Shown here piece by piece: positions 3,861-61,968 of a stretch of DNA of 64,000 nucleotides (the first letter of the stretch is position 1; each line of letters opens with the position of its first letter). The notes below the pieces were generated by a model. The model was not told the DNA's origin, ran no database searches, and saw only the letters and a program-made list of their open reading frames with translations. Made by a program: the position numbers and the translations under genes. The DNA comes from Rickettsia sp. (GTDB lineage Bacteria > Pseudomonadota > Alphaproteobacteria > Rickettsiales > Rickettsiaceae), in contig JAHFPS010000001.1 in assembly GCA_023269695.1 (NCBI GenBank), positions 44,366-108,365 on the forward strand, given 5' to 3'.

Positions 3861-4068
3861 CGTCATTGCGAGAGTAAGATCCCTGCATTCGCAGGGATGA
3901 CACAAAACAGAATTGCTTCGTTGACCTACGGTCTTCTCGCAATGACGTTGACCACATACAACTTTTAAAGTGTACTATCTAAAACCGCTTCCTCTTCTAA
4001 CTTTCAACAGTTGTGGGTCTTCCTCGCAGTGACGCTAGTTTAGCTAAATGCTAATCGGGTTAGATATA
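3861..4068. repeat. Composite repeat: core, reversed shell-C arm and degenerate A end
   Basis: CGTCATTGCG at 3861; CTTCTAACTTTCAACAGTTGTG ending 4015; GGTTAGATATA ending 4068. Confidence 0.85.
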
Positions 4069-9499: not shown

Positions 9500-9507
9500 C
9501 GACAAAT

Positions 9508-9653
9508 CGTCATTGCGAGGAGCCGCTGTAGTAGCGACGAAGCAATTCTGTTTTCTGTCATCCCTGCGAAGGCAGGGATCTAGATTCCCGCCTACGCGGG
9601 AATGACAACTTACAATTGCTTCGTCGTAGCAATGCTACTTCCTCGCAATGACG
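9508..9653. repeat. Core palindrome with inner hairpin pair
   Basis: CGTCATTGCGAGG...GTCATCCCTGCGAAGGCAGGGATC/GATTCCCGCCTACGCGGGAATGAC...CCTCGCAATGACG. Confidence 0.9.
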
Positions 9654-9704
9654 TATAAGTTTTTCGTAGAGATAACACCACCTAATTTATTAAGGTAATT
9701 ACTA

Positions 9705-10079
9705 ATGTTGGAAACATCGCACATTGTACAGGAATATTTGCCTATAGCGGTATTTTTTGCTATAGCATCAGTTTTGTCATTGATAATAATTACATTACCG
9801 AGGCTTTTGAGTCCTCGGAAATATAATAAGGCTAAGCTGGATAGTTATGAATGTGGATTTGAACCTTTTAGTGATGCTAGAAGCAAATTTGATGTACGTT
9901 TTTATCTAGTAGCTATTTTATTTATTATTTTTGATTTAGAAGTAACTTTTTTGGTGCCATGGGCTATTACACTTGGACAAATTGGTAAATTTGGTTTTTT
10001 TTCAATGATGTTTTTCTTATTTGTCCTTACCGTTGGTTTTATATATGAATGGAAAAAAGGAGCATTAGATTGGGAGTAA
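9705..10079 (+). CDS. nuoA: NADH-quinone oxidoreductase subunit A
   Basis: [21 protein letters not shown]. Confidence 0.96.
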
Positions 10080-10083
10080 TGAC

Positions 10084-10605
10084 ATGAAAGCAGGAATAGA
10101 TTTATACGATCAAGACAAGCTACTTGCAGAGGAAATCTCAAATCGAGGGTTCTTGATAACTAAACTCGATGATTTGCTGGGCTGGGCTAGATCTAATTCA
10201 CTTTGGCCCATGAGTTTTGGTCTTGCCTGTTGTGCAGTAGAAATGATGCAAGCTGCTTCTAGCCGTTACGATATGGATCGTTTTGGTATGTTATTTAGAC
10301 CAAGTCCACGTCAATCTGATCTAATGATAGTTGCAGGAACCTTAACTAATAAGATGGCTCCGGCTCTTAGAAAAGTTTATGACCAAATGACTGAACCTAA
10401 ATGGGTTCTGTCAATGGGAAGCTGTGCCAATGGTGGTGGCTATTATCATTATTCCTACTCGGTAGTGCGTGGTTGTGATCAAATCGTTCCGGTAGACGTA
10501 TATGTACCAGGTTGTCCTCCGACTGCAGAGGCTTTAATTTACGGCTTAATGCAATTACAAAGGAAAATTAGAAGAACTACTAGATTTAAGAGTGCCAGTG
10601 TATAA
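10084..10605 (+). CDS. nuoB: NADH-quinone oxidoreductase subunit B
   Basis: [16 protein letters not shown]. Confidence 0.97.
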
Positions 10606-11221
10606 TATGGAAGAGATTATTGATAACTTAATAAAGAATCAGGGGCTTGAGATAACTGCTTTGCCTGTATCCTCAAATGGTTCAAATGTACATTTCGCTG
10701 CCTATAAATCTGCTATAGAAAGTTTGTTGCCATTTTTATCATCAATTAAGCAATCTGAGGATTTACGTTTTACTGTACTAACAGATTTGTTTGCTGCCGA
10801 TTTTTTAAATCGTTCCAAACGGTTTGAGGTAGTATATAATTTACTAAGTCTTAAATTAAATAAACGTGTATTAGTCAAAGTTGAGGTTGGAGAAAATGAC
10901 ATAATCCCTTCAGTTACCAAAATCTTTAGTGCTGCTTGTTGGTATGAACGTGAAGCATATGATATGTTTGGGATAAATTTTGCTGGGAGCCATGATATTC
11001 GTCGTATTCTAACAGACTATGATTTTGTTGGTCATCCTCTTAGAAAAGACTTTCCATTAACTGGTTATGTGCAAGTGAAATATGATGAGAGTTTGGAAAA
11101 AGTAGTATATGAGCCAGTTAAACTTGATCAGCCATATAGAGAATTTGATTTTTCATCAAGTTGGAAAGGACCGAGTTATGTATTACCCGGAGATGAGAAA
11201 GCAAATAAACAAACATACTAA
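10592..11221 (+). CDS. nuoC: NADH-quinone oxidoreductase subunit C
   Basis: [20 protein letters not shown]. Confidence 0.96.
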
Positions 11222-13390: not shown

Positions 13391-13557
13391 TATAACTAAC
13401 CAGGGCTAACATTACGCCAAATTGACAAATGTCATTGCGAGAAGCCACTTTAGTGGCGACGAAGCAATCCAAGATTAGAGATGGATTGCCACGACCACTA
13501 CGTGGTCTCGCAATGACACTAGTTTACTATGGCAAAATACTAATCGAGTTAGCTATA
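13391..13557. mobile_element. Shell-A MITE providing the glmU stop codon
   Basis: TATAACTAACC...GAGTTAGCTATA. Confidence 0.88.
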
Positions 13558-37164: not shown

Positions 37165-37298
37165 CTTTTATTCTCTAATATCATTAGGTTTTCTTGCACA
37201 AAAGTGTCATAGATTCCTGCGTAGGCGGGAGTCTATGATCATAGGACCCTACATTTTTTATTGTTATAGTAAAATAGCAAAATTATACCAGACACAAA

Positions 37299-37661
37299 CG
37301 TCATTGTGAGGAGTGCGTAAGCACGACGAAGCAATCCAAAACATATGCTAAACAATATCTTCATATAAATTGGATTGCTTCGTCACCACTTTAGTGGCAC
37401 AGCTGTCGAAAGTTAGAAGAGGAAGAGGTTTTAGATAGTGTACTTTAAAAGTTGTATGTGGTCAACGTCATTGCGAGAAGACCGTAGGTCGACGAAGCAA
37501 TCCAGGAAAGCAACCAAAAATGGGTTGCTTCGTCGGCTCATGCCTCCTCGCAATGACGCCAGTTATTTTCCCGCAACTTTTAAACTGCCATGATAGCCTC
37601 TAAACCCGCTCTACCTTCTAACTTTCGACAGCTGTGACTTTAGTGGCTCCTCGCAATGACG
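37299..37661. repeat. Outer core palindrome interrupted by a shell-C element
   Basis: CGTCATTGTGAG...[insert]...CCTCGCAATGACG. Confidence 0.88.
37398..37636. mobile_element. Shell-C element (239 bp) with 10-bp TSD
   Basis: CACAGCTGTCGAAAGTTAGAAG...CTTCTAACTTTCGACAGCTGTG; ACTTTAGTGG at 37388-37397 and 37637-37646. Confidence 0.92.
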
Positions 37662-37768
37662 AGATCATCTTTTTTCCTTAAATCAACATGCATACCGAAT
37701 TATACTTTCACGATAGAATAAAAAATGTAGGGTACTATGGTCTATGATACTCAGGGATTTTTTAGAAC

Positions 37769-44186: not shown

Positions 44187-44335
44187 AAATATTGAGTATG
44201 TACTCGAATGATTTGAAGAATTGGAACGTAAAACGAGGGGTGAGCGAACGGAGCGTAGTAAATCTACGTGAGTACGCGAATGCCCCGAAATTTTACGGAG
44301 CCAATTCTTCAAAGCAGAAGAGTATATTTCTATGA
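44183..44335 (+). CDS. Candidate 50-aa repeat-derived bridging ORF
   Basis: Manual translation [14 protein letters not shown]...KQKSIFL*; ATGA overlaps with the lipB stop and the next start. Confidence 0.35.
44199..44326. mobile_element. About 128-bp TA-flanked RPE-like element
   Basis: TGTACTCGAATGATTTGAAGAATTGG...CCAATTCTTCAAAGCAGAAGAGTATA. Confidence 0.85.
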
Positions 44336-52044: not shown

Positions 52045-52376
52045 CTAACCCGAGAAGGTTTTAGCCATAGTAAAGGTGATGTTATTGCGAGGGGGCGTAG
52101 GCCGCACAACTGTCGAAAGTTAGAAGGGGAGGGGGTTTTAGGCAAGGTAGTTTAAAAGTCGTATGTGACCAACGTCATTGCGAGACCACGAAGTGGCATG
52201 GCGATCCACATTCATTAGATTGCTTCGTCGCCAAAATGGCTCCTCGCAATGATGCCAGGCTGTTTTCTCTATGACTTTTAAATGCCATGCGTAAGGTGAG
52301 TGATTAAGATCCTGAAACAAGTTCAGGATAACACATTTGGGTTTTAACCATTCTTTACGACTTTTAAACTGCCATG
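52040..52376. repeat. Composite A/C/B/G repeat cluster between convergent genes
   Basis: A TIR at 52040; C left at 52105; core at about 52173; G right end 52287-52301; B-type end 52359-52376 inside fmt. Confidence 0.85.
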
Positions 52377-60942: not shown

Positions 60943-61073
60943 TATACGCGAATGCTTTAAAGAATTGGCTCCTGCAAATACTTGTGGGGTATTCGCGTGT
61001 TCACGTACTAGTTGTACGCTCCGCTCGCTCATCCCTTGTTTTACGTCCCAATTCTTCAGATCATTCGCGTATA
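60943..61073. mobile_element. 131-bp TA-flanked RPE-like element
   Basis: TATACGCGAATG...CATTCGCGTATA perfect 12-bp TIR; same family as 44199. Confidence 0.88.
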
Positions 61074-61456
61074 CTACAATAAGATCGTTATTACTAGCTT
61101 TTTCTATTATAGCAAATTTTTGATTTTGAATATCTTGCAGGTCAGTGGAGATTGTTAAATAAGCAAAGTTTATCATTAAATTTATCATTATTTTTTAGTT
61201 GTTCTTAAATAAACTATAATTCTAATTCAACCCTAAGTGGCTGAACTAAAAATAATCAAGTATAAATACTACAGTATAGTTAGTTTAAACAATCATTTCA
61301 TTGTAGACGTTTGTTATAATTTTTGCAATCACGTTAGTTGTAATTTTATTAAAATTTAGTATAGACAATTGTAGATTATTGTTATAATCATAAATAATGA
61401 CGTAAGGATCTTGTATAAATTAGCCATATTTAATGAATTATTAAAAGATTGGCATG

Positions 61457-61968
61457 TATATTCAAATGATTTGAAGAATTGTTTTTTGAAAATATCAGGG
61501 ACTTGCATACTCACGTACCACAGCTGTCGAAAGTTAGAAGAGGAAATGGTTCTAGAGGTCATCATGGCAGTTTAAAAGTTGTAAAAAAATAACTGGCGTC
61601 ATTGCGAGGAGGCATGAGCCGCACAGCTGTCGAAAGTTAGAAGGGGAATCGGTTTTAGGCAAGGTACTTTATAAAGTCGTATGTGGTCAACGTCATTGCG
61701 AGGAAGACCGTAGGTCGACGAAGCAATTGTAAGATGTCATTCCCGCGTAGGCGGGAATCTAGCTCCCTGCTTTCGCAGGGATGACAGAAAAATGGATTGC
61801 TTCGTCGGCTCATGCCTTCTCGCAATGACGCCAGTTATTTTTCCGCAACTTTTAAACTGCCATGATGACCTCTAAACCCGCTCTACCTTCTAACTTTCGA
61901 CAGCTGTAACTAAAGTAGCTCCTCGCAATGACATAGAGGCTATCTAGAACATTGACGGGTTAGCTGTA
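61457..61968. repeat. Multi-layer nest (RPE half, C, B, core, C, B, core, A end)
   Basis: C left ends at 61519 and 61622; C right end at 61908; A-like end at about 61968. Confidence 0.85.

Follow-up and report, generated by a model that had tools for sequence, protein, structure and literature searches.

A non-coding MITE of Candidatus Tisiphia nested in palindromic repeats, with insertion probably guided largely by a GC-ended target preference

The stretch of DNA analysed here, called the window throughout, comprises 64,000 nucleotides and is 92-95% identical to the genome of the Candidatus Tisiphia endosymbiont of Hybos culiciformis (the Hybos genome below), which places it in a related Tisiphia. 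The spacer between a porin gene and thyX contains four nested palindromes in total. An element named C carries one palindromic core as cargo and sits in the arm of another, and the spacer holds the following features.

37237-37262, + strand: left arm, GATCATAGGACCCTACATTTTTTATT, of a further 26-nt inverted repeat enclosing the outer core
37299-37661, + strand: outer (target) core palindrome, right arm split by C; left arm 37299-37338, centre, right arm 37371-37397 plus 37647-37661
37388-37397, + strand: left copy of the 10-bp target-site duplication (TSD), ACTTTAGTGG
37398-37636, + strand: C element, a non-coding MITE of 239 bp made of outer shell, inner shell and cargo core
37398-37419, + strand: left terminal inverted repeat (TIR), CACAGCTGTCGAAAGTTAGAAG, 22 nt perfect; the 38-nt extension reaches 37435
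37466-37558, + strand: cargo core palindrome within C; every 239-bp copy has this cargo with these mini-hairpins
37615-37636, - strand: right TIR, reverse complement of the left TIR
37637-37646, + strand: right copy of the 10-bp TSD, ACTTTAGTGG
37717-37742, - strand: right arm of the outermost 26-nt inverted repeat, the two arms being 92% complementary

The termini of C, CACAGCTGTCGAAAGTTAGAAG and CTTCTAACTTTCGACAGCTGTG, form a perfect inverted repeat of 22 bp, with 84% agreement when extended to 38 nt, and ends of this type read CAC(A/G)GCTGTCGAAAG or similar. Folded as a single strand, the element gives one long hairpin (-63 kcal/mol, z -10.9). The longest ORF overlapping it has 51 aa and is read-through of palindromic repeat, and no Rfam match was found within the window, C element included. 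The arms of the cargo core are CGTCATTGCGAGAAG-GACCGTAGGTC-GACGAAGCAATCC on the one side and GGGTTGCTTCGTC-GGCTCATGCC-TCCTCGCAATGACG on the other. With up to two mismatches allowed, the 15-mer CACAGCTGTCGAAAG occurs seven times in the window versus 0.01 times expected. The left junction of C was confirmed by one 91-nt Logan contig from public runs; Logan contigs break inside repeats, and a contig obtained by exact-protein look-up stops just short of the outer core.

Deletion of C together with one copy of the 10-mer restores a core palindrome of 116 nt. In its DNA fold (-36.9 kcal/mol, z -11) CGTCATTGCGAGGAG pairs with CTCCTCGCAATGACG as the outer stem and CGACGAAGCAATCC with GGATTGCTTCGTC as the inner one; between the stems each side has one small variable hairpin, which makes two mini-hairpins. 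The duplicated 10-mer comprises the loop and the 3' half of the right mini-hairpin CCACTTTAGTGG; it is present once in six other core arms of the window, which represents the unoccupied state. The initial annotation had described C as duplicating a part of a core-arm mini-hairpin, and the presence of ACTTTAGTGG on both sides of the element bears this out: the copy at 37398-37636 arose by insertion into a core palindrome already in place, and the site hit was its right mini-hairpin. The core is the commonest repeat in the window with about 30 copies. Its mini-hairpins, placed between two conserved boxes, vary in sequence between copies and between the arms of one copy, and they keep the stem-loop form despite this variation, in the window (e.g., 13419-13480 and 37299-37338) as well as in the loci described below. 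Read from the side of box A, i.e., of the box CATTGCGAGGAG, the loops are often GTGA, GTAA or GTAG. Variation with a retained stem-loop looks like selection on structure.

Further copies of C in the window are the following:

3912-4015, - strand: half C element of left-arm type, 94% identical to positions 1-104 of C, outer end adjoining a core arm
52105-52289, + strand: C element without right terminus, left end exactly 10 nt past box A (junction directly after GCGTAGGCCG)
61519-61621, + strand: half C element of right-arm type, outer end within an F4 palindrome
61622-61908, + strand: C element of 287 bp with an RPE2-type palindrome centred in its cargo core

The ends at 4015, 52105, 61622 and 61908 adjoin core arms and the end at 61519 lies in F4, another palindromic repeat with ends TATACTCAAATGATTTGAAGAATTGG, so that every C end in the window abuts repeat sequence, as had been noted initially, and none lies in unique DNA. 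Three of these ends, 52105, 61622 and 61908, stand exactly 10 nt after box A, while the end at 4015 is found 4 nt past it, which is not the usual offset. The core arm carried as cargo by the half element at 61519-61621 is the landing site of the copy at 61622. This copy has each of its ends 10 nt from a box A and flanking 10-mers which differ, GCATGAGCCG and ACTAAAGTAG, a pattern which two C copies in both arms of one core would leave after recombining. The F4 palindrome itself, of approximately 125 bp with ends TATACKCGAATGMTTTRAAGAATTGG, has two full copies in opposite orientation in the window, at 44200-44325 and 60945-61075.

One genome per species, in total 185,579 representative genomes, was scanned for ACARCTGTYGAAAGTTAGAAG, and the scan gave 66 loci of 8 kb, designated here with L and a number. 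Fifty-two of them came from the Hybos genome, a few from the Tisiphia of Nemotelus and from a MAG named “Rickettsia endosymbiont of Pseudomimeciton antennatum”, and one, L024 (JAIETQ010000022.1), from a contig labelled as an Amoebophilaceae MAG. Positions 13-1727 of the latter are 92.7% identical to window 9685-11210, which holds nuo genes; the contig is Tisiphia-like and probably misbinned. The copies of the 20-nt terminus on either side of its C-like element are direct and not inverted. The sample thus consists of 8-kb tiles with an exact 21-mer of the terminus, which cover approximately 27% of the Hybos contig; together with the other loci and the window they amount to about 30% of 1.97 Mb. 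From the 66 loci and the window 117 C ends were collected, mostly from the Hybos genome. Words from the C terminus reached 80-125 times the single-copy depth in three public runs, and the family comprises roughly 100 ends per genome.

An exact 10-bp TSD was found at six independent copies, at 37398 of the window and in L009, L010, L047:6028, L049 and L050:842, all at unrelated sites and each with a chance probability of about 1e-6. Duplications with one mismatch occur in L013, L048 and the L026 group. About two thirds of the paired C ends are without a clean duplication, and this is tentatively attributed to recombination between copies. The full-length copies align over the entire 239 bp with a mean identity of 90% and have the cargo mini-hairpins GACCGTAGGTC and GGCTCAYGCC in common. 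Such uniform cargo means that the core belongs to the master copy and did not enter each copy later as a guest; what was amplified is a single sequence of 239 bp that includes the cargo core. C is shorter than 500 bp, it has TIRs, a TSD of constant length, no long ORF and dispersed copies with conserved ends. Considering the TIRs, the exact 10-bp duplications at six copies, the roughly 100 ends per genome and the lack of an ORF, C is a true MITE, as had been supposed from the window.

Other subfamilies keep the C ends over approximately 35 nt and differ in their interiors. A subfamily of 187-188 bp carries an RPE2-like split palindrome (L013:1813-1999, L016:5209-5395, L017:5052-5238, L039:1815-2002), and its copy in L017 seemingly has a duplication of 8 bp and not of 10 bp. 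Forms of roughly 300 bp have an RPE2-type palindrome at the centre of the cargo core, and a 208-bp form is without palindromic cargo. The copy at L004:838-1187 has two identical arms of “left type”, and the 60 nt of RPE2 that flank it are the same on either side; it makes up a near-perfect palindrome of more than 300 bp, which could be a product of replication or repair or an assembly artefact.

The spacer upstream of nuoA was compared with the sister genome in search of an empty site. In the three genomes (window 9507-9660, L030:2004-2200, L024:1500-1800) the orthologous spacers differ completely in their repeats, the contents being a core and RPE2; a core arm, a C and a core; and a C variant, respectively. 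The genes flanking the spacer are 92-94% identical and yet the repeats differ, which indicates very fast turnover of repeats at a fixed site. The L019 region, included in the same comparison, is not syntenic with the window.

Among the core arms of the sample, 18 of the 316 box-A arms have a C end 4-12 nt downstream, where 2.1 would be expected. Ten ends lie at exactly +10 from box A versus 0.23 expected (Poisson 9e-14), and the partner ends lie 8-12 nt from the inner box. The occupied hairpins are of at least eight different sequences with different upstream and outer flanks, so that each hit is an event of its own and duplication of a single composite does not account for them. The hot spot at the mini-hairpin of the core arm is genuine, and the 10 bp beside box CATTGCGAGGAG are the most used single site.

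Automatic sorting assigned 32 ends to core arms, 24 to F4-like repeats (a single composite, present in duplicates, accounts for many of these), 13 to RPE2-type repeats and 41 to “other”. When the “other” ends were read by eye, at least 16 turned out to be further RPE2 arms or centres, often with GGGAATCTAG directly before the junction, a few were core-related or located in other shells, and approximately 14 were without recognisable repeat. Core arms thus hold about 26-31% of the C ends, and approximately 70% are found elsewhere, in RPE2-type, F4 and F3 repeats, other shells and unique-looking DNA, the last with about 12-20% of the 117 ends. Within F4 the 10-mer GCATTCRCGT is a recurrent position of C ends in the loci. 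For repeat adjacency, blast depth was taken on the outer side of the junction at a distance of 8-30 nt and compared with a matched null; in the 10 bp that adjoin the junction it under-counts, since alignments stop at the masked element. By this measure 50% of the de-duplicated ends adjoin repeats in comparison with 33% of random non-coding positions (p 4e-4). Over repeat density the excess is 1.5-fold only, which weakens the association with repeats proposed initially, and there is the 12-20% share of unique-looking ends. Insertion mainly into unique DNA, which would have contradicted the initial proposal, was not what we found: every one of the 11 copies whose duplications are exact or nearly so is located within a repeat or directly beside one. 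Targeting of core-palindrome arms is nevertheless too narrow a description. Clean 10-bp TSDs are present also in F4, beside a core and in the outer palindrome of F4-like type, and duplications with two mismatches at RPE2 centres.

The insertion sites share a weak, symmetric signature with an AT-rich middle and a G-rich outer flank. T is present in 4 of 103 sites at -10, the first base of the TSD, and in 4 of 103 at -2, the ninth base, and A in 3 of 103 at -1, the last base. A weak symmetric preference for GC-ended targets is known for DDE transposases acting as dimers, e.g., those of IS10 and Tn5. We built one target matrix from 71 de-duplicated non-core ends and a second from 25 unique-looking ends, and scored all non-coding positions. 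On intact core arms the highest scores fall at -1 and 0 relative to where box A ends, i.e., at the observed hot spot. With the 71-end matrix 28-31% of these arms rank there among the best-scoring 1% of non-coding sites, with the 25-end matrix 39%, at -1. According to the 71-end matrix, the core-arm hairpins, which make up 0.9% of the positions, would receive approximately 22% of the insertion weight, and about 26-31% was observed; for repeats in general the two matrices predict a share of 50-56%, and about 50-55% was observed. The matrix was trained largely on ends in other GC-rich palindromes and may partly encode “hairpin-likeness”. A matrix from non-core ends thus finds both the hot spot and the repeat share, so no dedicated recognition of palindromes is needed, and most of the “palindrome targeting” is accounted for by a generic, symmetric, GC-ended target preference together with selection. 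What is left over is the sharpness of the peak, to which box A or the hairpin structure may contribute.

The cargo core was examined as a landing site of its own. The core is fixed in the master sequence, so that each C adds two core arms to the genome, as the initial annotation had it with its cargo target. The further idea, that each insertion creates a landing site for the next one, fared poorly: cargo arms are occupied in 1 of 86 cases and other core arms in 17 of 230 (Fisher 0.03), and cargo arms hold 38% of the core-arm weight by matrix, while they account for one of the 18 occupied arms (binomial P 0.002). Such under-use counts against self-seeding. The single example of a C within a C is at window 61519-61908, where half of the outer C is lost. 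The rarity of this arrangement is most likely due to instability, since long direct and inverted repeats would lie side by side; cis-immunity is an alternative explanation for the spared cargo cores. C is also cargo itself. A composite of approximately 500 bp with ends TAGACCTCTTTCGAAACTC / GAGTTTCGAAGGAGGTCTA, consisting of an outer palindrome with a complete C inside, is present in at least five copies at 98-100% identity (L029:7262-7765, L036:752-1254, L026:4339-4841, L001:6896-7308 and L060:5395-5646), so nested elements are amplified as one unit.

With these observations several explanations can be weighed. We assign a probability of about 0.65 to the reading that C is a non-autonomous MITE of Candidatus Tisiphia (Rickettsiaceae) which reaches the core arms largely through a preference for GC-ended targets. 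That C is immobile, its nesting being left by abundant repeats which recombine, are duplicated or suffer replication errors that form palindromes, agrees with the many copies which are halves or chimeras with unrelated flanks, with the two identical arms of the near-perfect palindrome in L004 and with the direct termini in L024. Recombination and duplication are indeed a good account of the rearranged copies. For the intact copies the explanation is contradicted by the six exact duplications at unrelated sites, the precise conserved termini and the unoccupied paralogous sites with a single 10-mer, and as a general account we find it hardly credible. Random insertion without target preference, followed by survival only in dispensable DNA and mostly in other repeats, has in its favour that repeats make up 33-42% of the non-coding DNA by blast depth and that only 3 of the 117 ends lie in ORFs of at least 150 aa, though such ORFs cover 71% of the DNA. 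High-scoring target sites are nearly as dense in coding as in non-coding DNA, so it is clearly selection that removes genic insertions; the gene avoidance pointed out in the initial annotation is real, but it is supplied by selection. What random insertion cannot give is ten ends at one offset of an element of approximately 100 bp, nor the base biases at TSD positions 1, 9 and 10. It is contradicted by the former, and we hold it to be very improbable.

Closer to the original proposal is a transposase which specifically recognises the core palindrome, by its arm or hairpin, so that the carried core seeds new sites and the family expands in a self-reinforcing, gene-avoiding manner. The observed peak, with 10 of 18 ends at one offset, is sharper than the matrix predicts, for which the offsets -1, 0 and +1 are roughly equal, and an extra determinant of the peak may be contact with box A or with the hairpin structure. 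The constant position of the junction in hairpins of varied sequence, the C inside the cargo core of another C and the confinement of clean duplications to repeats point in the same direction. A recogniser of REP type would concentrate on one position of an extragenic palindrome and stay within that palindrome family; the concentration was found and the confinement was not, since some 70% of the ends lie outside core arms and clean duplications occur in F4 and F4-like palindromes as well. Moreover, a matrix without any core site still finds the hot spot, and the cargo arms are under-used. Of the proposed targeting of the core palindrome the hot spot thus holds, and specific recognition with self-seeding we consider unlikely. 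More improbable still is a transposase which reads DNA structure as well as sequence, binds the core palindrome where it is extruded as a four-way junction and cuts at a fixed 10 bp from box A, with the family showing a form of target immunity towards the cores that it carries. If true, structure docking would explain the sharpness of the peak, and there would be a structure-guided, self-avoiding pair of MITE and transposase in an obligate endosymbiont.

Under the preferred reading, i.e., generic GC-ended preference and selection, the process may be pictured as follows. A DDE transposase supplied in trans would make cuts staggered by 10 bp and prefer a symmetric GC-ended target. In a genome of 33% G+C such targets would cluster where palindromic repeats have their GC-rich stems, and C would come to be nested there, while insertions in genes would be removed by selection. 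Nested composites could be moved by their outermost ends, and such composite movement is a probable route by which C gained its core and became cargo of another element.

We infer mobilisation in trans, since searches of genome, metagenome, viral and plasmid collections revealed no autonomous element with C ends. The autonomous IS with these ends that had been expected initially did not come to light: the 21-nt terminus revealed none in the 185,579 representative genomes, where the 66 loci are all MITE-like or solo ends, and gave two loci in metagenome contigs, both of them MITEs. In viral contigs the 18-nt terminus gave three chance matches only, and on plasmids the whole C sequence matched through its core only. 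Several larger intervals between C ends were considered as candidates for the partner and rejected, namely a nested IS110 in L045, an inserted element with CCCCCGTCAAAAGTC-type ends and adjacent IS66 genes in L022, a group II intron fragment in L048, and host genes in L054 and L060. The resident multi-copy transposases are IS66, IS5-type, IS256, IS630 and IS110; the IS5-type element, the one whose ends were read, has ends which differ from those of C. Many bacterial MITEs are without a known partner, and the absence of one is therefore no bar to membership of C among MITEs. The intron segment of L048 (3612-3851, minus strand; domains D1-D4, Rfam RF02005, 138.7 bits) is located within a C of 1104 bp at L048:3044-4147. 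It enters the cargo core at the mini-hairpin, directly after GACCTACGG, at the same kind of site that C uses. F4 and its relatives were considered as parts of group II introns, and this was rejected.

The ISfinder family table gives ends with CAGGG and duplications of 8-10 bp for the ISAs1 family, and the 10-bp TSD of C is within this range. Real members which we checked have ends beginning with CAGGGCAA, CACGGCTCTGAA, CAGGGAAAG and CACGGCTC; the duplication is of 10 bp in ISPa60, whose end is CAGGGCAATCGC, and of 9 bp in a Rhizobium member with the end CACGGCTCTGAA. Most C copies have CACAGCTG or CACAACTG at this place, and those at L014:736 and L065:1103 have CAGGGCTG. Compared with ISAs1, the C end is CACAGCTGTCGAA, or CAGGGCTGTCGAA in two copies, with the ISAs1-like start CA(G/C)(G/A)GC, and the similarity extends over approximately 7 bases only. 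In this start and in a TSD within the 9-10 bp of its members C resembles the ISAs1 family (ISEc1/H-rpt, ISPa60, ISKpn31); unlike the ISAs1 elements, C has no transposase gene between its type of ends anywhere searched. A decayed remnant of an ISAs1-like transposase, approximately 85 aa, is present in the sister genome (L046:5030-5287, tblastn E 5e-7), and a protein search with it returned only the fragment itself. Remnants of IS701-like and ISAs1-like transposase genes lie side by side at L046:4400-5300, cut by F3 and RPE2-type repeats. In the IS4 family the duplications are 9-12 bp, which fits the duplication length of C as well. Judged from its terminal sequence and 10-bp TSD, C would fit the ISAs1 family best, though weakly; we regard this as a doubtful lead and not as a family assignment.

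Among known systems, bacterial MITEs such as Correia elements, ERIC and QMITE of Coxiella are similar to C in being shorter than 500 bp, non-coding, mostly intergenic and present in many copies with TIRs and a TSD, and also in their strong hairpin potential, size variants and truncated copies (PMC10969869). C differs from them in its 10-bp TSD, in a master copy with another complete palindromic repeat and in its host, a Tisiphia endosymbiont. IS1397, ISPpu9/ISPpu10, ISPa11, ISPsy8 and ISRm19/22 target REP sequences, and their insertions, as those of C, accumulate at one particular position within extragenic palindromic repeats (Tobes and Pareja, 2006; PMC1525189). Unlike these IS, C is non-autonomous, several repeat families are hit, and the hot spot is reproduced by a generic matrix. 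RPEs, palindromic repeats of 100-150 bp, are known from Rickettsia conorii and its relatives (summary in PMC10969869), i.e., from Rickettsiaceae, the family to which the host of C belongs. The core, RPE2-type and F4 elements look like members of the RPE class, while C is unlike RPEs in having clear TIRs and TSDs and in being intergenic, not in-frame in genes. In plants, nested MITEs resemble C in that MITE-in-MITE nesting results from target preference and tolerance, and are unlike it in being eukaryotic, with TA/TAA targets and no fixed cargo repeat. For maize and rice, Jiang and Wessler are said to have found in 2001 that MITEs insert preferentially into other MITEs.

No description of the C family, its repeat sequences or Tisiphia palindromes was found in the searchable literature. 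C is an undescribed but fairly ordinary MITE; its nesting is striking, its mechanism is ordinary, and it is no new kind of mobile element. The present reading offers a testable account of the “Russian-doll” repeat clusters in Tisiphia and Rickettsia-type genomes, in which a symmetric GC-ended preference in an AT-rich genome would funnel MITEs, whether of cut-and-paste or copy type, into each other's GC-rich stems, after which the nested composites would travel as units. It would also explain why short-read assemblies break at the same places, which are the repeat clusters. The C family is a source of insertion-polymorphic markers for Tisiphia strains. As a caution for other systems, “palindrome targeting” may reflect a simple target matrix and not a dedicated mechanism.

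Among the 185,579 species representatives the 21-nt terminus of C occurs in Tisiphia-type genomes only. It is absent from the representative genomes of described Rickettsia species and present in the MAG of the Pseudomimeciton antennatum endosymbiont. The core palindrome has matches of 72-87% on plasmids NZ_CP034088.1, NZ_CP017076.1, NC_009427.1 and NZ_CP023738.1, and these matches, in Methylocystis, Methylosinus and Novosphingobium, indicate that the core is far wider spread in Alphaproteobacteria than the C shell.
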